A stretch of 64,000 nt of DNA. Origin: Lingula anatina. Its lineage: Eukaryota > Animalia > Brachiopoda. Positions 3,001 to 16,724 of this stretch are shown here, piece after piece. Every line of letters begins with the position of its first letter. The stretch's first letter is position 1. The position numbers were made by a program, and so were the translations under genes. The notes below the pieces were generated by a model, which worked only from the letters and a program-made list of their open reading frames with translations, made no database searches and was not told the DNA's origin. Where the stretch lies: assembly GCA_051362555.1 (NCBI GenBank), contig CM120644.1, forward strand, positions 10,438,567 through 10,502,566, given 5' to 3'.

Positions 3001-4609
3001 TAGACTTACATAATAACTTAAATAGTAGGATTAGGTTGACATTTATTACCAATTGAGTTGTAAAACACATGACAATGCTTAACTGATATTTGGAAACGGG
3101 TTTTACATTTGACGACGATATGTTAAACAGCCCAATGCTTTTAACATTCAAAGCTTTTAACATTTTAAACATTCATAAGGCCTCGTTATTTATCTAATTG
3201 AAAAAAGAGCTAATAATTGATGTGCATATCCCAACAGTAATGAGCGGAAGTATTGTGCAGAGACACGCGTGTGACTTCCGATCCCTTAAAGTGTTTGAAT
3301 GTCAGAAAAGAAAGCTCGGATTGCTGCTTTGAAATGTTCGACAACGAACAACACTTTAAACAGAACTTGAGGATCTTTAAATGGATCTGTGGCGCCAGCA
3401 GAATCTTATTAAACGAATGTAACTATAAACTAAGTGAAATGTGTCATTAAATCTGTATTAAGATAAGTGGGCACACTTGTCTTGGCGACGGTGGCGGCTC
3501 CTATTAAATTAAGCGTGCATTTCGCTTTCAGTTGTCTCCTAGCGTACTGTAGATCATGTGTCTTGTTTAATCACGTAGACTGTGCTTGTTCAAGTAGATC
3601 GATTTGTTTGATCTGATATTGGTTTCTGATGAATATGTTCAGTGTTTCTTTGCCATGACATTTTGACGCTTCGAATATGCCCAAGTCTGATATAGCAATG
3701 TTATAGAATCGCCAACTTACTAGTAATATTTAATTCAGTCACCTGAATTTTGTATAATGATTTGGAGTTTCAAATGCATATCAGGTTGCTCCAGGTGCAT
3801 CATATATGTTTAGATATACGATAGCCGTATTGTTATGAACACATTAATCTTAACGACACGCCCAGATATGTCTCATATCTACTTTACATGAGCTGTATGA
3901 GTTTTACTGCATGATGAAGTCCAAATTACGCTTGGTCATGAGATCCGCACGGTTCCTATAGAATAGATCGCAAAGGATGCTCATATTCCTGCTGCGTCAT
4001 TGATACCTTTGTCACATTTAATCAATACAAGTAAATAAGTGATTACTTCGGTAACAAACAGTTTGTTTTTATGTATATGGCAGCCCACATGTACCGATAT
4101 ATAATATGTGTTCGTGACACCTTGCCTTTCCACCGGCATCGCTTGTTGCGGATGCTTCAATAGTGTTTCTAAAAAGGGATAACGCAGTCTGGAAACAACA
4201 CGCAACGATTTTAGCATAATTCGTTTATACTTCACCCGTGGCTCACTTTCTTTCCTAGAACTTAACAGCCAACAGGACCATTTCAAAACAGAGTTATAAA
4301 CGCAATTCTTACCACAGCATATCATATCACAATTTATCGACTAAAAGTCTAATAAAATCACCGGGAAATGGTCTAATCTATAAGGTCGGTGATATTGTAA
4401 TAACTTTTCGCCTATGTAAATACCACTGGGCTCGGCACATTGCCTTATGTCAACACTCCCCTATTGACAAAAAGCTTGCGATCAAATTATATCTCTGGGT
4501 TCAGAGCTAATTTCAAACTTCACTGTTTGCTTCGGAGTGTCACTTAGGTCAAGTTAAGAAAAAATCAGAACATAACCCGACAGCAGTCGGTCATATGGAT
4601 TACAAGGTT

Positions 4610-4897
4610 TGTTGCGGGTGTCAGTCCAATTTTATTCAATTGTCAACGATATATAACATCAACTGGTAACAAATGGTACTGTTTATTGTCTAACATCAAC
4701 TTATGTCAACTTACATCAACTTTCATAAACTTTCAACTGGAAACAACTGGTAACAACTTTCATCTGAATCAACGTGAAACTCGTTGCGAGAATCTGACTT
4801 GTCTAACTAACACGTGCCGGCAAAAACTAAATACTATCAACACCGATACTACAATTAAGGTCAAGACACTACTAAAAATAGCTACTTGTCAGTTACA
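4610..4897 (-). repeat. 3' LTR (288 bp)
   Basis: Direct repeat of 10772-11059. Two minus-strand AATAAA hexamers (4631-4636, 4682-4687) are candidate poly(A) signals. Confidence 0.97.
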
Positions 4898-4907
4898 TGG
4901 CTCCCTT
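4898..4907 (-). promoter_or_regulatory. Plus-strand primer site in the PPT position (AAGGGAGCCA)
   Basis: Short purine run AAGGGAG followed by CCA, immediately before the TG of the 3' LTR on the minus strand. Confidence 0.75.
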
Positions 4908-5402
4908 AAATTGTGAATCCCACAATTTACTTAAACTATCATTTAATATTAAAACTCTAACACAAATCTTAAACTTAACATCCATTACCATACTACATAC
5001 ATGCATATATATCAAAACAATTTTGTGAACTTAACTTTACCTTCTCTATTAAACAACTTTAAAACTCAATAACCATTACCATATGTATACAAGCATTATG
5101 CATCAAAGTTTATGAGCAATTTCTGAACATAACACAACATTGTAAGCATATCTATCTCTCTCACACATATGTCAACCTGCCATTCACATGAAAACAAACC
5201 CTTTCCTTTTAAACAAAATGTGAAAAACAGTCTTAATTTTAAAGATTCTATACATTTAACAGTCCATAACACTGAAATTAATCCAGTCCAGTGTTTATAC
5301 AATGCACCAGTCTAAACATAAAAAGTTCACTCAAGTCAACCGATGGCTCCTTGACGGGGATTCCCCTTAAAATTACAGTTACACACTATAATGATTGTTC
5401 AG

Positions 5403-8400
5403 TTATTGCGCTTCCTCTAACAAGCACAGTTTATGTATTGGTCGCATCAATATAGAATTCCTAGTCTTAATCTGAACTGTGCGAACAAGTCCATCCTTTC
5501 CTGGGTAAGTATTTATCACTCTAGCAATTGGCCACACATTTCTAGGAACATCTTCATCAATCACTAACACAATATCACCAATATTCAAATTTCGCTTTGG
5601 CTCCAACCACTTTTGACGACTTTGCAAGGTAGGTAAGTATTCTTTTATCCACCTGCACCAGAAAATGTTTGCCAAATACTGAACCTGCCTCCATCTGCGT
5701 TTGCTATATGTGTCTGTCTTGTCAAAATCACCTGGTGGGAGCACAGACCCAGAACGTAACAATAACAAGTGGTTTGGGGTCAACGCTTCCAAATCATTGG
5801 GATCACTGGACACCGGTGTCAACGGACGCCCATTCACAATTGCTTCCACAATACACATTAAAGTGACAAGATTCTCATCATCTAAAACTTGTTCTGTCAC
5901 AACACCTCTTAATACCTTTCTAACAGTTCTGATGGATCTTTCCCATACACCACCCATATGTGAAGCACTAGGTGGGTTAAAATGCCAATCTATGTGGTTC
6001 TGGTGTAAATAATCATGTATCTTACTCTGATTCCATTCTGTGACGGCTGCCTTCAATTCACGCTCTGCACCAACAAAGTTAGTTCCATTGTCTGAAAATA
6101 TTTTCTTGGGTTTTCCACGTCTACTGATGAAACGCTGCAGGGCATTAATAAATGATGAAGTATCTAGTGATTGCGCTATTTCAATATGCACTGCTCTTGA
6201 TGCTAAACATGAAAATAAACACCCATACCTCTTAACCTCTAACCTTCCACGTTTAATCAAAAATGGACCAAAATAGTCCACACCCACATAAGTAAAACAT
6301 GGTTCATTGGGTGTAACTCTAACTGTTGGCAAATCAGCCATTCTTTGCTGACATGGTAACGCATTGTTTCGCTTACATTTGACACACTTGCTGATCACTC
6401 TGCGAATGGATTTCCTCGCTCCTATAATCCAATACTTCTGTCTCAATTCAGAAAGCACATATTCCCGTCCACTATGTCCTAAGGCTTTGTGTTGCTCGTC
6501 AATAATCAAATCTACAACATGGTGCTGTGGTAAAATCACTGGATTTTTTATCCCTTCTGAAATAGCTGAATTGTTCAATCTACCACCAACTACTAACACA
6601 CCTGAAGAATGCATCACTGGTGCAAGCTTAAACAACTTACTTGCACGTTTAACACCACTCTGACTGTTCGCAGCTCGATTAATTTCTGAGAGCTCTTTCC
6701 CAAAGTGTTGCCCTTGGATATACTTCAAGATTTCTAACTCTGCCTTTTCTGTTTCTTCCACTGAAAGTGGACCTGTGGGTACATTCACCTTTTCTCTTCT
6801 ATGCCTTGCGATTAACCACTGTTTGAAGCGTAGTATCACAGCAACATCTTTCTTCAGCTTTTTCCACGAAGATCGGCGTTTTAGAATCTTATCTATCACT
6901 GATTCCTGTACTGACTCACTTCTTTGTGCTAGACATGTCTTGGGTCTCTTTACCTCTTTATCTTCGTCTGACACTCCTTTAACATCTGGAGTTTCTGGCC
7001 AGTGGCACTCACTCTGCTTAAGAAATTCTGGTCCTTCAATCCATCTGACACCGTTAACCATTTCATGGGCAGTGAGTCCCCTTGTGCAATCGTCAGCTGG
7101 GTTCCTCTTTGAATCGATGTAGTGCCACTGTGACGGAACTGAACCTTCTCTGATGACAGAGACTCTGTTTTCAACGTATGTTTGAAATCGCTTATCTTCA
7201 CTTCGAATGTAACTCAAAGTACACGTGCTGTCTGTCCAAAACATTGAACTGTCCACAGGAAAAGTGAGTTCCTGTCGTATCATGTAATCTAATCTGACTG
7301 CCATAGTAGCTGCTGTAAGCTCGAGGCGCGGAATCGTAAGCTGCTTGATCGGTGCCAACCGAGCCTTTGACATCAACAATGAAGTATGTATCTGACCTGA
7401 GATGTCTTGTACACGGAGGTAACTTACAACACCATACGCCATGGTAGACGCATCAGAAAAATGGTGTAACTGAATGCTGGCAATATTCTCAGGCTGTACT
7501 GGCTGTACACATCTTGGTACTTTCATTTCTTTCATCTTGGGCAAGCTGTTCTTCCAACCTGACCACTCTACCTGGGTTTTATAAGGCACAGCTTCATCCC
7601 AACCTATCTTGTCACGTGTTAAATCTTGTAACATCTTCTTCGCTCTGATAGTGAAGGGAGAAATAAAGCCCAGGGGGTCATAAATAGAACTGATGACACT
7701 TAAAAGGCCTCTCTTGGTCAATGGTTTCTTCTCAAGATCCATTTTATATGTGAAGCTGTCCACTTCAATGTCCCAGCAAACACCAAGAGCACGTTCTGTT
7801 GGCAAGGCCTGTAAATTCAAATCAAGATTCTTAATAGGCTTGGCTTTGTCTATGTCTGGTATCTTGGATAACACTTCTCTGCTGTTGCTAATCCACTTCG
7901 TCAGGTGGAAAACTCCCGTTTGCAGCAGACTCTGTAATTGACTGACCATGGTGATTGCCTCTGTTTCACTCATTACTGACTTTAAACAGTCATCTACATA
8001 GAAATTCTGTAAAACAGTATTGACTACTTCTGTGTCGTAATGACCTTTGTTGTCTTCCGCTGTGCGTTGCAATGCAAAATTACAGCAACTGGGACTCCAT
8101 TTGCCACCGAACAAATGTACTGTCATTCGATAAACTTTCTGTTCTCTTTCCAGATCCCCTTTAGGCCACCATAGAAAACGAAGAGAATCTCTCTGCACTT
8201 CTGGTACCTTCACTTGATGATACATGGCTTCTATGTCAGACATGATGGCTATAGGGTGCTGTCTAAAGCGTAACAATACACCTAATAAAGAATTCACAAT
8301 GTCTGGCCCCTGTAGAACTTGACTATTCAATGAGACACCCTGATGGCTAGCTTTACAGTCAAATACTACCCTTACTTTGTCTGGTTTTTTGAGGTTCACA

Positions 8401-10736
8401 ACATCATGGTGGGGTAGGTACCATACACTGCCGTCTTCTTTGTCAACTTCATCAGGGCTGACTTGTTCTGCATAACCTTTGTCAATTAAGTCCTCCATGA
8501 ATTCTGTGTACGCTTGATGTAAGTTAGGATCATGTGACAATTTTCGCTTTAAGCTGTCTAGGCGTTGCTCGGCCATCTGCTTGTTTGGCGGAAAATGAGG
8601 CTGCCTGTCTTTAAATGGTATCGGCAAACTGTAATGCTCGTCATGTTGAATCTTATCTTCCCATAAAGCGAGGACCCGCTTGTCTTCAACTGATAAACCC
8701 TTTTTATCAGATATCAATGTTCCATGGCCTTCTATTTTCCAAAACTGTTCTAATTGCTCATTCAGCTCACGATCTGCCTGAATAAATGTTGCCGTGGCAA
8801 CATGTCTACGCTTGCCACCAAGCGGTCCATTTAATGTCCAGCCCAACACAGTTTTTGTCGCATATGGCTCATTTGGACTTTGACCTCTCTTCACATCAAT
8901 AGGCATAAGCACCTCTGGATTGTCTTGTCCAATTATTATGCTCACCTTGGCATTCATGTGATCTATTTCAGGAAAATTCACTTCTTGTAAGTGACTCCAC
9001 TTTCTGATGTCCTCTGCACGACCCATGTTTTCCATGTTTACAGGTAATGATGGTCTTGTATACACAACTGGCAAATCAATCACATTTTTGTCTTCTAAAT
9101 CAGAAATCTGTAAACTGATCACTACAGTCTCTGAGACACTTTGTTCCTTTTCTAAGGTCGTAAGCTTTAACACTGTATTTTCACCCTGTGCACCAATAGA
9201 CTGCATCAACTCTTCTGAGCAAAATGTACTGGTGGATCCTGAGTCCAGCAACGCATAGGTGTGCACAAACTGTGATTTATCTGGAACTTTCACTTTCACT
9301 GGTACTATTGGCAAGGCAATTCGCATACCACTTTCCTTTCTGGTCCCATGAGCTCCATACGAAACTTCATTTACAGCACTGAGAGAAGTGTTTAGCCCTG
9401 TGTGAATGTGAGATAAATCTTCATGAACTGGTTCCCTTGTAACAGTTGGCTTCACCTGGTGCAAGAATTTAGTGTGTTTTTGATTGCACCCTTGCACTGA
9501 GCACGTACGTTGTAATCTACACATCTCAGAGAAATGTCCTGGCTTTAAACAGTTGTAACACAGTTTGTTGTCATTGGCAAATTTGAGTCTCTCAGGCAAT
9601 TTCATGGCTTTGAATTCTGTACACCCAAATAATGAATGACTGCTGCCACACTTAATGCATGGTGACTGAATAGATTTTCTTGTGTCACCATTAGGCTGTG
9701 AACTGGTGTCACCATTAGGCTGTGAACTGATAGCTGTAATACTGTAACTCCATCGGTTGTTGGGTCGCCTCTGTGAATCACTGCGACTGTCACTCCTTTT
9801 CACATGTGCTAGGCCACCATACACTGGATCATTTGCTATTTCTGCATTTTCAACAACAAATGCAGTGACATCTTTAATATCTGGGCACCTTTCTTCCTTT
9901 CTTATCTTACGTACTTCTTGTTTCCATTTGTGCTGCAAATAACCAGGGAGACGTTCAATGATTTTGACCAGTGAGCTTTGTGTGCTCAACTCTGAGGAAT
10001 TTCCCATTGCTTCAAGCGTTTCAGCACATGTTCTTAACTCGTCGGCATAATCCCTCAATTTTGTAACATCATTTGCCTTTATGGCTGGGCCTGTCGTGAT
10101 TTTCTTAACCCATGTCTCCGTAATAGTGTAGGCTGAACCAAATCTTTCCTTAAGCAACGCTTTAGCCTTCTTATATCCATCTTCAGGGTTCATTACAGCA
10201 CAACATTGAATTACACCATGAGCCTTTCCACTGGTATAATGAAGCAAACGAATTAATCTTGCGCCGCTGTCCACAGTTTCTTTCTCCACACTATTTTCAA
10301 AAGTTTTGATAAAATTCCAATACTGAAGAGGGTCTCCGTCAAATTTGTCTATTTCAACTTTAGGAATTTGTATAGAGTTCACTAAATGATGAATCACATC
10401 ATGACTACTCTGGTTTTGAGTCAAGTTGGTGGAATTTACCTGAATGTCCAGTTTTGTAGATGAAATTGGGGCACTGGTCTCCATCTCAGCTTCAGCATAC
10501 GCAGTTTCCTCTGCTAACAATTTTGCTCTTTCAGTGTCCAACTTGAGTTTCTCCCTTTGTTGTTTCAATTTCAATTCCTGTTCGTCCAAATGTTTCTTCA
10601 CTTCAAAAGATGCCAATTCTGCCTCAATGGCCATCCGTTTTGCCTTCGCTTTCAAGCGAGCTTCAGTTGAGCTCGTGCTCAAACTGCTAAATAAGCTGGC
10701 CGTTTCTATGTCTTCCATTTTTTGTTGCACGTCCAT
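5403..10736 (-). CDS. gag-pol: BEL/Pao Gag-Pol polyprotein (1777 aa): Gag with three Cys/His zinc knuckles, aspartic protease, reverse transcriptase, Pao-type RNase H, integrase, BEL C-terminal domain
   Basis: Gag-like PKVEIDKFDGDPLQYWNF. Knuckles CIKCGSSHSLFGC, CYNCLKPGHFSEMC, CSVQGCNQKHTKFLH. Protease ALLDSGST (~9234-9245). RT WYLPHH, KVRVVFD, NFYVDD (7989-8000). RNase H HHFSDAS, TIPRLEL, WTDS, NPAD. Integrase HHCC plus GVDYFGP, SDNGTNF, GGVWER. C-terminal RWRQVQYLANIFW...GKDGLVRTV. No stop or frameshift. Confidence 0.97.
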   Translation of the reverse strand: MDVQQKMEDIETASLFSSLSTSSTEARLKAKAKRMAIEAELASFEVKKHLDEQELKLKQQREKLKLDTERAKLLAEETAYAEAEMETSAPISSTKLDIQVNSTNLTQNQSSHDVIHHLVNSIQIPKVEIDKFDGDPLQYWNFIKTFENSVEKETVDSGARLIRLLHYTSGKAHGVIQCCAVMNPEDGYKKAKALLKERFGSAYTITETWVKKITTGPAIKANDVTKLRDYADELRTCAETLEAMGNSSELSTQSSLVKIIERLPGYLQHKWKQEVRKIRKEERCPDIKDVTAFVVENAEIANDPVYGGLAHVKRSDSRSDSQRRPNNRWSYSITAISSQPNGDTSSQPNGDTRKSIQSPCIKCGSSHSLFGCTEFKAMKLPERLKFANDNKLCYNCLKPGHFSEMCRLQRTCSVQGCNQKHTKFLHQVKPTVTREPVHEDLSHIHTGLNTSLSAVNEVSYGAHGTRKESGMRIALPIVPVKVKVPDKSQFVHTYALLDSGSTSTFCSEELMQSIGAQGENTVLKLTTLEKEQSVSETVVISLQISDLEDKNVIDLPVVYTRPSLPVNMENMGRAEDIRKWSHLQEVNFPEIDHMNAKVSIIIGQDNPEVLMPIDVKRGQSPNEPYATKTVLGWTLNGPLGGKRRHVATATFIQADRELNEQLEQFWKIEGHGTLISDKKGLSVEDKRVLALWEDKIQHDEHYSLPIPFKDRQPHFPPNKQMAEQRLDSLKRKLSHDPNLHQAYTEFMEDLIDKGYAEQVSPDEVDKEDGSVWYLPHHDVVNLKKPDKVRVVFDCKASHQGVSLNSQVLQGPDIVNSLLGVLLRFRQHPIAIMSDIEAMYHQVKVPEVQRDSLRFLWWPKGDLEREQKVYRMTVHLFGGKWSPSCCNFALQRTAEDNKGHYDTEVVNTVLQNFYVDDCLKSVMSETEAITMVSQLQSLLQTGVFHLTKWISNSREVLSKIPDIDKAKPIKNLDLNLQALPTERALGVCWDIEVDSFTYKMDLEKKPLTKRGLLSVISSIYDPLGFISPFTIRAKKMLQDLTRDKIGWDEAVPYKTQVEWSGWKNSLPKMKEMKVPRCVQPVQPENIASIQLHHFSDASTMAYGVVSYLRVQDISGQIHTSLLMSKARLAPIKQLTIPRLELTAATMAVRLDYMIRQELTFPVDSSMFWTDSTCTLSYIRSEDKRFQTYVENRVSVIREGSVPSQWHYIDSKRNPADDCTRGLTAHEMVNGVRWIEGPEFLKQSECHWPETPDVKGVSDEDKEVKRPKTCLAQRSESVQESVIDKILKRRSSWKKLKKDVAVILRFKQWLIARHRREKVNVPTGPLSVEETEKAELEILKYIQGQHFGKELSEINRAANSQSGVKRASKLFKLAPVMHSSGVLVVGGRLNNSAISEGIKNPVILPQHHVVDLIIDEQHKALGHSGREYVLSELRQKYWIIGARKSIRRVISKCVKCKRNNALPCQQRMADLPTVRVTPNEPCFTYVGVDYFGPFLIKRGRLEVKRYGCLFSCLASRAVHIEIAQSLDTSSFINALQRFISRRGKPKKIFSDNGTNFVGAERELKAAVTEWNQSKIHDYLHQNHIDWHFNPPSASHMGGVWERSIRTVRKVLRGVVTEQVLDDENLVTLMCIVEAIVNGRPLTPVSSDPNDLEALTPNHLLLLRSGSVLPPGDFDKTDTYSKRRWRQVQYLANIFWCRWIKEYLPTLQSRQKWLEPKRNLNIGDIVLVIDEDVPRNVWPIARVINTYPGKDGLVRTVQIKTRNSILMRPIHKLCLLEEAQ

Positions 10737-10753: not shown

Positions 10754-10771
10754 AGATCCTCCGAGTTTCAC
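10754..10771 (-). promoter_or_regulatory. Non-canonical primer-binding site (GTGAAACTCGGAGGATCT), complementary to the element's own LTR
   Basis: Directly abuts the 5' LTR end and lacks TGG. Its reverse complement matches the minus-strand LTR segment AGATTCTC-GCAA-CGAGTTTCAC (10957-10936). Confidence 0.7.
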
Positions 10772-11059
10772 TGTTGCGGGTGTCAGTCCAATTTTATTCA
10801 ATTGTCAACGATATATAACATCAACTGGTAACAAATGGTACTGTTTATTGTCTAACATCAACTTATGTCAACTTACATCAACTTTCATAAACTTTCAACT
10901 GGAAACAACTGGTAACAACTTTCATCTGAATCAACGTGAAACTCGTTGCGAGAATCTGACTTGTCTAACTAACACGTGCCGGCAAAAACTAAATACTATC
11001 AACACCGATACTACAATTAAGGTCAAGACACTACTAAAAATAGCTACTTGTCAGTTACA
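10772..11059 (-). repeat. 5' LTR (288 bp)
   Basis: Minus strand reads TGTAACTGAC...CACCCGCAACA. No difference seen from 4610-4897. Lies upstream of the gag ATG (10736). Confidence 0.97.
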
Positions 11060-14000
11060 AGGTTCATTGCACTGGGTGCAACATTGCACTATAATGCTGT
11101 CCGTCTTATGTGCTATACCATGGACCTGATAGGTGGTTTATTTTGAGAGTGTTTTTTATGAAATTGATATCCATGTAAATTTACCTTCATTTTTTGTCAT
11201 TTCCATCTATTTATTGATGCGTTTAAACTGTTTTGTACTTATCTGTTCCGATTGGTTTGTTTTATCCTTGATAAATCTACGAAACATTTTAAATGCATTT
11301 AAGACTTTAAATAAATACCGTACTGTTATTATAAAGTAAGGTTAGCCATACGGTCGGTGACAATAATGCATATACATTTCTACCTCACGGTAGCCAGTGA
11401 CCAACAGGTGGGCACGCATGACCTTTCCAAGTAGATATAGTATCTACTGTACCTTACTTTTGTTAATTTTAGTCTGTTAAGATAATTTGGGATTTATTTT
11501 ATTCCAATCGATTAGTTGAATCAATACCATGAAGCTATGTAAGACAGTGTGTGTATAAAGCAAATGAAGAAAAAGAAGAAAATAGCACCGTCTGAACCGC
11601 AATGTCGCACATTTGTACATATACACTTAATCACAAGGTAGCTAATGAAGTTGTCTCCTTCGAAGAGTAACTCTCATTTATAAATGTCTTTCCATGAGAT
11701 CCATGCACCATTTATATAAGTACATTTTACTGCCATGCCTACTGTATCATTAGATGCGCATTGAGAACACTCTGAAGCAAGGAAACCCCCATCCGACATT
11801 CACGCAAAGGCGTCGGACAAGATTCCTTCGTCATTTGGTTAAGGTTTGCAATAATATCACTTGGATTTATTGTGGTTAATGTCCAAGACAGTTGTATGTT
11901 AATACAATCTGTTCATCATCAGCTTAAATATGTTGTACATATGGACTGTTTTCATGTTCATGGTATGAGTGACCTCTGTTGTCACCGGCGACTCATTACA
12001 GTAAGAACCGTTGAAATGTTAGTAGATGCATCAAGCTGTTTAAAACTGTTTCAGGAATGATTTGATTTAACTAACTCTGACATGTCAGATCCCACGCTAC
12101 GGACTGTGTGTATTCTGATTTGTCTCTTCTCTCATTTCCCTCAACCGATGCATAAAGCTTTGTAACATATTGGCTGGGGCTGTCCCTTGTGGATCGAATC
12201 CGTCTTCAATTCGCAAAAGATGATTGGCATACATCATTTGGGAGCCTTCAGAAAGAATCAGGAAACCGCCGACGCATTAAAAACCTTAATTTGAAAGCTG
12301 TAATATTTAGCTTCAAGGTTTCCCTTGGCGGTAGGCCTCTACTTTCCTAGTTTCCACTAGCCCATTTTGGATCAACTTGAATCGACCCCAGTGCCTACTT
12401 TTCTGTTAATATCAACTTCAGAGGTGGGGGATGCGACTTCATCCAGATGGTGCGTGGCATGTAGATCTCAAGTTGGATTCAACGCTGTCCGCGTGTTGTC
12501 CACTCGCTACTGTGGAGTCGAGCATCTCCAAGTGAGACGGCACTTTAATCGAATTTGGACGTGATCTAAAACAGCGCAGTATGAAAGTGCTCAGACTTCT
12601 TCTCTCTCTGTGTCTGCCTTCACTTATGACGGTCTTGGAATGGATGAAATGCGACTGATACGCATCAACCTTCAGGATTTGTGGATTTTGTCCTTTAACA
12701 GCTCTGACTTACGGGTGCGTTCAATTTCCTGCAACTTGTCCTCAAAAGCACCATGTTTTCCCGAAAATAGCATATTTTGCTACATTTAAAGAATACGGCA
12801 TATTTTACTGTGTACTTGTAAAAGGGTTATTAAGTATTATATTAATTGTTTACATCCCTTTATTAAATCCCAAGCCAAAACTTAGCACGATTTGAGATAC
12901 AGAAAGGTGACAATGTTTCACTATAGTAGATAGACATACAGTTCCACCCAATTTGTCTTACATTGTTACATCGAATACTTTGATGATGACTACTTATGAT
13001 TTTGCTTTGATGTATTCTACTCCATTTTTCCATCCCATTTACGTGACTATTGTAGATAATGCCTTGACCTTTTAGAACACAGCAGTCACTGCTGCTTATA
13101 ACAAGTATAAAATGCTGTTCTGATCGTTCACAATCCCTAATAGAACTCGACGGGATTTCAGGCAAACAAAAAATAATTCGTTATTTAAAGCAGCAGATAC
13201 AAGCTACCATGGAATATGTTTGAAGGCATGTTGAGTGACCCAAATTTAAGCAAAATAAATAATAATTTAAACAACTTTATTGTCAAGGGGTTCACAATGG
13301 CACTGGCGACGTTGCATGGTAAAAACACGCAATTTAGTCTTGGTGGTTCACTATGTTATAGAAAACAAAAACGTATATGATGGTTTATGCTGACTCCCTG
13401 GCATCATCTAAATGTACATGTTCTAGATAGAAACAGCACAAAGCTAAATATTGGTTTTCTAATACTTGGCAGTCAAACCATATTTTAAGGGGGTTTAACA
13501 CAGTGTTTTTTTAGAGCTTGCTTTTCAAGTTCTATTAAAATCACTTTTTACTTTGATATACTGTTACATGTATATTTGATTATATGAAATAATTAATTGT
13601 ATTATCTGTGTGCGTGTAGGAATGGTGGCGCTTGATTAAGGATGAGGGTGCGCGCATATGTGTATAAAAATCCACCTTCAATAGACAGCAAAATTTCACA
13701 GAAACACATCTGAAGTAATTGGTTTGAAATAATTCCACAAAATATAATGTTCCATCTTACTAGAATCAATACTTTGAAGTTCAAATCAACAGTCTGAATT
13801 CTATCAGCCGCGACATGTTGCAGGGTTAATACTATTTGATGGATATGTATACCTGTATTGTATAGTTACTTTCAATGGTAAGTGCTGTATTGGTGAATCG
13901 GAGACATATGAGACTCCATTCAATATTCATTATGAAATATTATACTCCCACATCTTGTCAAGGCCCCCACCACTCCTGCACTGACATCATAATAAATAAA

Positions 14001-14495
14001 TAACGAGTTTTATAGCCGCCATTCAATATGTCACCGGTGACATAGCATGAAAAAAAATATAAACAAAGGCTGTTTTTCATCATCGTCTAATATTGTCGGT
14101 GTCAGATTTTTTGGAAGTGTTGACATCTCTTAAAATATTTAACAATTAACTGGGATATAATTGGACACGCCTGGGAAAGCTGCAAAACGTATTGGGGGCT
14201 GTTGTTTATCCAAGATGAATAGAATTGTTTGCTTTAGAAGTATTTGGCTCTATATATAAGTACTTCTAATGAAATATGCACTTTCATGACATATTATTAT
14301 TATCTGGTACTGATGGTGAAAAACAGATGGTTGGAGTCGCGGTGTTTAGATCCTTGATCAATGCCCTTGATCAATGACCGATTCCTCGCAGTAGGTCCTG
14401 GCATTAGGAAGCGCGAAGACAGGTTGAATCTCCCCCCCCCCCCCCCCACACACAACGTTGACATCACTCAGCACACACCTGCGTACACATAATAG

Positions 14496-14674
14496 GAGCG
14501 CATTCAGAGTAGCGGACTTACAGATCCGCGGATCAAATATGGCCGGCAAATATTACTTTCGTAATCCCTGCGGGGAATCTATTCAATGTCTAATTGGGAA
14601 TTAAAGGGCAAGCTTTTTAGTGAGTTGCCATATTTGATCTGTGGATCTGTTAGTCCGTTGTTCTGATTGCGCTC
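14496..14674. mobile_element. MITE, PIF/Harbinger-like non-autonomous DNA transposon (diverged)
   Basis: ~48-bp imperfect terminal inverted repeats: GAGCGCATTCAGAGTAGCGGACTTACAGATCCGCGGATCAAATATGGC versus GCCATATTTGATCTGTGGATCTGTTAGTCCGTTGTTCTGATTGCGCTC. Flanks TAG/TTA, an imperfect TWA-type target duplication. Confidence 0.7.
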
Positions 14675-15481
14675 TTACACGCACACAAGTTATACATGTA
14701 GGTGCAACCTCGCAAAAAGTCACACGCTTGCCTACCTCTATGTTTAAGTCTAAATACTTCGAAACTCCGTTCATAGCAACATGTATCGATATTTTGATGT
14801 GAAGATGTCTTTTACATTTGAAAATGATATATGGCTCATTCCCAACTCCCTTGCTCACCAAGCAAAAAACACTTGCCCATATATCCCGCTTTATTTTTAA
14901 TGTCTTCTTGGCGCCGTCTCTACGGATGCTTCCATGTTGCGTGACCTAGCTCTGCCGCATACAACCACGTGTAAATATTTTACAGGAATCTTCATTTCAT
15001 AGCTTTGACTTCAGTGATGATGGTGATGATTATTTTCTTATATTGTTTCAGAGGCCAGGTACAAATTAGAAGAGTAAAAGACTGAAAGACTACATGTGTG
15101 ACGTTCTTAATAAGACCCTGGGGAATAAAGTGAAAAGAATCCGGATCTGAAGTCACATGCATGGTCCAATGAGGTAGGTCTACATATTGTCATCATATTG
15201 CCTGGTGATTTTAATGACAAATATTTTGCAGTTTACCAGTAAGTACAGTGGGAGTGATATATGCACTCGCAAATTGCTCCATGTGAGTGTCATGATGTAT
15301 TGGCACGTGCTGTAGTCAGGAATCAGTAAGTTAAAGTGTGGTCGTTATAGTTACAGCCCAAACTTGGTTTTGGTGTTTTGGTGTTTCTGAGCGGTTGTTA
15401 ATTTAGATGAATAATGCATCTTCAGAGTTGTGTTATTATTCAAGTAATGTTTCTCAACCACTGACCATGACACACGTCTTA

Positions 15482-15621
15482 GGCCGCGTTCACAACCAAT
15501 TGATCTGCGGACTAACTAGTTCGCGGATCAAATATGGCGCGCACATGACAGTGGATTCTCGCCTTCCGCTCTCGACGTCCCACCAAGTTAGTTCGCGGAC
15601 CAACTGGTTGTGAACACGGCC
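15482..15621. mobile_element. MITE, PIF/Harbinger-like, 140 bp
   Basis: TIRs GGCCGCGTTCACAACCAATTGATC and GACCAACTGGTTGTGAACACGGCC (3 mismatches). TTA duplicated at 15479-15481 and 15622-15624; a 3-bp TWA duplication is typical of PIF/Harbinger. Confidence 0.82.
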
Positions 15622-16566: not shown

Positions 16567-16724
16567 TGCTTTTGGTGCCGCGTTGCGCTATTGTGAAAAA
16601 CAACCTTAATTTATGTACAGTTCCTTTCTCATAATCCACTATAAAACTATGCTTGTGGTGCCGCATTGCGCTATTGTGAATAACAATCTTAATTTATGCA
16701 CTGCTCCTTCCTCATCTTCCACTA
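16567..16724. repeat. Diverged two-copy tandem duplication, ~83-bp period
   Basis: TGCTTTTGGTGCCGCGTTGCGCTATTGTGAAAAACAACCTTAATTTATG... at 16567 recurs as TGCTTGTGGTGCCGCATTGCGCTATTGTGAATAACAATCTTAATTTATG... at 16650. Confidence 0.88.

Follow-up and report, generated by a model that had tools for sequence, protein, structure and literature searches.

In LTR elements, reverse transcriptase (RT) makes a DNA copy of the RNA, and the minus strand is released by RNase H. In Cer7 of C. elegans, a BEL/Pao element, a tRNA fragment encoded by the element itself is said to match the primer-binding site (PBS). According to reviews, the first strand starts from a tRNA and the second from a polypurine tract (PPT) that the element makes itself (PMC8742986; likewise in the available parts of PMC5371799 and PMC13191261). 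For the Belpaoviridae, LTRs of 0.2-1.2 kb, a genome of 4.2-10 kb, an 18-nt PBS for the 3' end of a host tRNA and a PPT of ~10 nt before the 3' LTR, serving as second-strand primer, have been described, and the ICTV calls the replication of BEL/Pao elements poorly understood (PMC8742986). Two variations on this scheme come from other LTR elements. Tf1, Tf2 and Tj1 are self-priming, according to the part of PMC4600332 at hand, and in Ty1 and Ty3 split tRNA sites prime the first strand, according to the corresponding part of PMC5371799. No report of tRNA-primed plus strands or of self-priming in BEL/Pao elements was found in the openly licensed papers searched, a set without Repbase reports and older BEL papers.

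The element, its relatives and its primer-binding position

The window, that is, the whole analysed stretch of 64,000 nucleotides of Lingula anatina DNA, contains one young, intact BEL/Pao LTR retrotransposon of 6.45 kb on the minus strand and no second copy elsewhere. The LTRs (5' LTR, 10772..11059; 3' LTR, 4610..4897; both minus strand) measure 288 bp, run from TG to CA and are identical, with 0 mismatches. A 5-bp target-site duplication lies at the element's 3' end (4605..4609) and at its 5' end (11060..11064). The single gag-pol ORF (1782 codons; 5403..10736, minus strand) encodes, in this order, DUF1759, zinc knuckles, protease, RT with a YVDD motif, a Peptidase_A17 region (E 1.7e-50), the integrase (an rve domain located between Peptidase_A17 and DUF5641) and DUF5641. 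The domain content is that of BEL/Pao elements, with the integrase following RT and RNase H; no env was found in the element. Elsewhere in the window, a pair of 51-nt inverted repeats (84 %), accompanied at a distance of 1 kb by a related copy (14493-14677 and 15507-15546), is possibly a small non-autonomous DNA transposon, and an 83-nt unit occurs as two copies in tandem at 16567-16724.

Relatives were retrieved with an integrase alignment of 62 sequences and consisted of the best 80 of 568 metagenome loci together with 25 genome-contig loci. Five of these 105 loci, in which no pol stop was present, were dropped (L024, L049, L057, L076 and L096), and the 100 others plus the window gave 101 regions, representing 85 de-duplicated families. 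The closest proteins (P0002-P0005) reach 70-73 % in the integrase; the survey covers loci with DNA, the nearest of which stand at 65 % or below. The viral contigs searched yielded no relative of the window's element. The BEL/Pao elements of loci L089-L113 come from contigs listed as bacterial or archaeal; these contigs are most likely animal DNA within those assemblies.

The earlier note had held that the first strand looks self-primed, and the sequence downstream of the 5' LTR agrees with this. A TGG-type tRNA PBS is absent there. The first 10 nt after the LTR (10762..10771, minus strand) are the exact complement of LTR positions 115-124 (10936..10945, minus strand), a match that was reached in 0 of 200 shuffles. 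The latter segment is the putative self-primer, in a contiguous, intron-less form; by analogy with Tf1, its pairing with the primer-binding position could start the first strand. Thirteen rows with known LTR ends were used to look for such self-complementarity. Contiguous complements of 10-11 nt were present in the window, L089 and the 3' LTR of L072, and complements of 11-15 nt that run across a GT-AG intron junction inside the LTR were present in L013, L021, L025 and L091 (each 0 of 200 shuffles). L055, L100, the partial 5' LTR of L072 and three controls with a TGG-type PBS gave negative results. In a blind scan, the zone of which left out the window's own self-primer site, 9 of the 43 loci gave spliced PBS matches of at least 11 nt; a large part of the others are incomplete. 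Complements across a spliced junction were noted in L013, L021, L023, L025, L091, L001, L008, L017 and L050. The distant loci L104, L108 and L113 do possess a TGG-type PBS, and L098, of which the 5' end is missing, is absent from the self-primer comparison. In L072, the 5' LTR (1-326) has a splice acceptor inside the self-primer and the 3' LTR (6693-7103) is of the intron-less form. This difference suggests intron loss via reverse transcription, with the proviso that the two LTR copies are only 88 % alike and that the contig may join two subfamilies. Taken together, these pairings make the element's own RNA the probable primer of the first strand. A proposed correspondence between the PBS spacer and the PPT spacer was tried and fails (0 versus 2 in L050, 4 versus 2 in L089).

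Two tRNA-Asp-like sites downstream of pol

Two motifs resembling the 3' end of tRNA-Asp are present at the positions and on the strand where they had been reported. The edge site, GGGAGCCA, occupies 4905-4898 on the minus strand, which is the sense strand of the element, and adjoins the TG of the 3' LTR. The internal site, AATCCCCGTCAAGGAGCCA, lies at 5362-5344 on the same strand, 40 nt past the pol stop. The 3' end of tRNA-Asp(GTC) quoted in the earlier note agrees with the published mammalian (PMC5699543) and Drosophila (10.1101/2025.05.12.653498) ends, as given in the parts of these sources at hand. Besides these two, the reference ends were those of a filarial nematode (PMC6903752, in part) and of four virus-encoded eukaryote-type genes, and they may differ from the end of the host tRNA.

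At the edge, the match is unbroken and takes in the final 8 nt of tRNA-Asp. The internal site corresponds to tRNA positions 58-76 and matches at 16 of 19 nt, far above chance: the next best position in the window, on either strand, scores 13, and in 1000 dinucleotide shuffles of the UTR the maximum was 12, a value exceeded in none of them. The analytic chance of the internal site is 1e-6 for the UTR of the element, 1e-4 when 50 tRNA ends and two strands are allowed for, and 6e-5 if GGAGCCA is assumed to have been copied from the PPT. The element's link to tRNA-Asp is, in all likelihood, real. A tRNA gene or SINE at the motifs was rejected, as ARAGORN found 0 tRNA genes in the window and Rfam gave no credible match across the element and no tRNA match. 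A tRNA-like fold in cis was also rejected: an acceptor partner is absent from the window's element and the T-arm is not kept, the internal site being overlapped by a small G-C hairpin (5356..5366, minus strand; 4 bp, 3-nt loop) that is not a proper T-arm. Neither does the stretch encode a primer in the manner of Cer7, the PBS not being complementary to it. The viral matches L081-L088, considered as tRNA genes, turned out not to be such genes. On a single 204-kb viral contig (L116-L120), there are several tRNA-like genes whose 5' end is that of eukaryote-type tRNA-Asp and whose anticodon arm differs; one of them is called as tRNA-Arg and one is uncalled.

The description of the edge as an unusually short purine tract does not hold, as the length and make-up of the tract are the norm in the clade. 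The 101 3' regions divide into 43 with a GGGGCCGG-like end, 27 with another short G-rich tract and 3 with GGGAGCCA, the remaining 28 being uncalled. The PPT ends show continuous variation among the relatives (examples are GGGGCCGG, GGAGCCGG, GGGGGGCTA and GGGGAGTA), and GGGAG is a common PPT end, so that what is extra at the GGGAGCCA edge is CCA alone. The edge site (4898..4905, minus strand) corresponds in position to the PPT of the clade, which is short, G-rich and preceded by a hairpin; in the window, this hairpin is A-T-rich, has 9 bp and directly precedes the tract (4907..4929, minus strand). Since it occupies this usual position, the edge site is ordinary if taken alone. A hairpin, often A-T-rich, was seen by eye directly before the G-rich PPT in many of L001-L113. 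In L097 and L100, which group near L072, the PPT at the 3' LTR edge ends with 9 nt identical to positions 65-73 of mammalian-type tRNA-Asp, without CCA. Simple duplication of the PPT was rejected as a habit of the clade: an upstream repeat of the element's own PPT core was present in 0 of the 43 elements with a GGGGCCGG-like end.

As the earlier note had argued, the orientation of the sites suits pairing of the tRNA with the minus strand and not with sense RNA. The sense RNA carries the tRNA's own letters, so that a tRNA can pair only with minus-strand DNA or with an antisense RNA. The latter leads to a reading in which an antisense RNA is the template: the CA of the LTR is followed on that strand by a TGG-type tRNA-Asp site in canonical geometry, a sense LTR fragment would prime the second strand, and LTR introns would not be lost. 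This reading is very unlikely. The other end of such a template is without a purine tract, most called relatives have the same layout without any tRNA site, and intron-less LTRs occur in the window, in L089 and in the 3' LTR of L072, which implies that spliced sense RNA does get copied.

Recurrence of the paired sites among relatives

The GGGAGCCA edge is found in 3 of the 101 related 3' ends, namely those of the window, L072 and L098, and the internal motif recurs in both of the latter. The internal site of L072 begins 10 nt past the pol stop and matches at 14 of 19 nt, the highest internal score among 76 relatives, attained in 1 of 1000 shuffles; the 19-nt score had been set from the original finding before any relative was scored. 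That of L098 lies inside the last pol codons and includes the T-loop letters; it was spotted by eye, in coding sequence, before the search window of -150 was set. GGAGCCA had been expected at both positions in relatives. At the edge this stands, with CCA in all three elements; internally CCA is kept in one of the three, the sites ending in CCA, CCT and AGA, respectively. The edge sites are exact runs of 8, 9 and 9 nt that end in CCA, and the LTR follows at a distance of 0, 0 and 2 nt. Since the internal 3' ends vary, the site at which the 3' end of the primer pairs in all three elements is the LTR edge. Priming from both sites, as first envisaged, does not fit the two elements without an internal CCA, in which the 3' end of the primer would be unpaired at the internal site.

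When the predicted duplex of the tRNA-Asp 19-mer with the minus strand was ranked, the window, L072 and L098 took places 1-3 among the 101 regions and 1-3 among the 85 families, each at its internal site, with energies of -35.9, -30.6 and -29.2 kcal/mol. The next best region reached -25.9 kcal/mol (mean -18.1, sd 3.9 kcal/mol over the 101 regions); these energies were calculated with RNA-RNA parameters and a non-host tRNA. The sense strand of the three elements pairs with the 19-mer at only -17.6 to -20.6. Of 500 decoys, in which the last 9 nt were kept and the first 10 permuted, none reached the summed energy of the three elements. With the window excluded as the discovery case, the chance that two given families take ranks 1-2 of 84 is ~3e-4 (calculated by hand). 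None of the three elements has a GGAGCCA edge without an internal site, a number too small to exclude that such elements exist.

These results have to be weighed against chance acting on an ordinary PPT, in which a CCA spacer happens to come after GGGAG and the likeness of a G/C-rich hairpin close to the stop codon to a tRNA arm is accidental. The PPT ends vary continuously, n is 3 and the scoring was partly post hoc, and coding sequence does produce matches of this kind, in the integrase of L041 and L042 and in gag of L072. On a 14-nt score, which was set after the sites were known, L042 ties with the window (13.0) and L041 with L072 (12.0), in each case by a match in integrase codons, and the value of L072 was attained in 2 of 500 shuffles. 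Against chance stand the pre-fixed 19-nt score, by which L072 was chosen as top relative, the agreement of the energy ranking with the decoy test, and the window alone, at 1e-4 after the look-elsewhere correction. Coincidence is considered quite unlikely as the whole explanation. Over the first 80 loci, 8 of 902,174 positions score at least 14, two of them in L072. In the gag region of L072 (1375-1391), a 16/17 copy of the window's internal site was seen; it overlaps the conserved coding word LP-x-x-E, was excluded from the counts and may be due to chance. A trace of the site was found in 0 of 238 protein tails after DUF5641; the window's own site lies past the stop, beyond such tails.

A second reading accepts the internal site as real and recurrent and takes the edge for an ordinary, RNase H-made PPT, in keeping with its position in the clade and the same kind of hairpin before it. 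tRNA-Asp, or a 3' fragment of it, would then pair at the internal site with minus-strand DNA or with antisense RNA, but its role would be no more than that of a helper, of a primer for the second strand at a central position or of a target through which antisense RNA is silenced. Central PPTs do exist in Ty1 and retroviruses (PMC5371799, in the part at hand). What this reading leaves unexplained is that the internal site appears only alongside a CCA edge, in 3 of 3 cases, none of the other 82 families outranking these elements; central priming in particular meets the difficulty that the internal CCA is gone in two of the three. We judge it unlikely.

In all three elements, the minus strand thus has two separated segments complementary to adjacent parts of tRNA-Asp. 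Along this strand, the edge corresponds to tRNA positions 76 to 68 and the internal site to about 73 to 60, an arrangement that is colinear and overlapping, with about 450, 130 and 35 nt between the sites in the three elements. Of the six substitutions at positions 60-73 relative to the Drosophila-type end, five are of the G-to-A or T-to-C type and give wobble pairs on the minus strand. G-to-A and T-to-C are the commonest mutations anyway. All three internal sites have A69, which forms a wobble, and hence a weaker minus-strand pair, with fly- or mammal-type tRNA and is native in the four virus-encoded tRNA-Asp genes (L114-L117). G64 of L072 equals a variant of nematode tRNA-Asp (PMC6903752, in part). 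Covariation of the internal site with the host tRNA-Asp is possible on the basis of these letters.

A69 also bears on a reading in which the sense RNA mimics the tRNA, either by pairing with the 5' strands of the tRNA for capture or packaging, or by presenting a cut site for host tRNA processing that defines the primer. A69, in three of three, would pair with U4 better than the native G69, and an unpaired CCA is not conserved at the internal site. The remaining evidence makes this mimicry highly improbable. A68 of the window would mismatch C5, and an acceptor-strand partner is absent from the window's element and from L098, that of L072 being 2.2 kb off. The T-arm fold is out of tRNA register (60 % paired, with 500 of 500 shuffles as high), and whole tRNA-Asp pairs with the sense strand at -17 to -19 versus -23 to -28 with the antisense strand.

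The three elements do not form one clade. This grouping was rejected with an RT tree (AU p 4.7e-10); the grouping of the window with L072 had a p-AU of 4.5e-37, and that of L072 with L098 was not rejected (p 0.088), all with a quick tree of 21 of the 61 rows. On RT-RNase H trees (quick tree, 39 of 61 rows), the three elements need three changes. With the polyproteins of L072 and the window being 38 % identical as well, the paired sites must have been gained, exchanged or kept at least twice, three possibilities that the trees cannot tell apart. The window (10936-10945 and 10762-10771) and L072 have similar self-primers, PBS starts and first LTR bases despite this low protein identity. The likeness hints that LTR and 3'-end modules may have been swapped between lineages.

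Priming order and known systems

The reading preferred here is that host tRNA-Asp primes the second strand at the LTR edge by means of a split site on the minus strand, the first strand being self-primed; on the evidence of the sequences of three elements, from which the mechanism is drawn, it is given nearly an even chance. A single priming site at the LTR edge with an upstream anchor would describe these sequences better than two equal primers. In this model, positions ~60-73 of the tRNA would anneal near the pol stop through 14-17 bp, G-T wobbles included, which would open the acceptor and T stems. The last 8-9 nt of the tRNA, with the CCA end, would then shift to the LTR edge, where the site is colinear, and the spacer would loop out. 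The 3'-OH of the tRNA would fix where the LTR has its left end, either in place of the PPT primer made by RNase H or as a backup to it. The internal site of the window retains CCA and might prime as well, in the fashion of a central PPT. The tRNA would be dispensable in principle, because a remnant of the genomic RNA left by RNase H would read identically. In a wider form, several BEL/Pao lineages would have inverted the order of priming independently, with their own RNA, built by splicing, as first primer and split-site tRNA-Asp as the second, setting the LTR end; this is conceivable, with rather less than an even chance of being right.

If a tRNA does prime the second strand, the two primer roles would be interchangeable, tRNA-Asp and its 3' fragments would be a new point of control for the host, and BEL/Pao elements without a recognisable PBS would be accounted for. 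The model predicts tRNA letters, not element letters, at the 5' ends of plus strands.

The element shares with the Belpaoviridae the size of the LTRs, one gag-pol ORF, the order PR-RT-RH-IN, a length of 6.45 kb and the ~10-nt position of the PPT, a tract being present at the position typical of the clade. It differs in that no 18-nt tRNA site follows the 5' LTR and in that its tRNA match is found at the PPT's end, in reverse orientation, and concerns tRNA-Asp. The element is a BEL/Pao member by its proteins and layout, and the priming described by the ICTV does not fit it. Like Cer7, it has a sequence in tRNA sense within a BEL/Pao element; here, the PBS is unrelated to that stretch. The likeness to Tf1, Tf2 and Tj1, which belong to a different family, is that the PBS is complementary to the element's own LTR RNA. 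In contrast to what the part of PMC4600332 at hand describes for these elements, the primer spans a splice junction in the element's relatives and appears, judging from TATA-like words, to lie well inside the transcript; a second-strand role for a tRNA does not figure in that part. Compared with central PPTs, as covered in the part of PMC5371799 at hand, the upstream site likewise shares letters with the 3' PPT, but it is closer to the tRNA than to the PPT, lies at the pol stop and is without CCA in two of the three elements. As in Ty3 and Ty1, in the same part of that review, one tRNA has two separated sites, the acceptor end at one and the T-arm at the other; those of Ty3 and Ty1 are on the genomic RNA and serve the first strand, whereas those of the present element are on minus-strand DNA and are proposed to serve the second.
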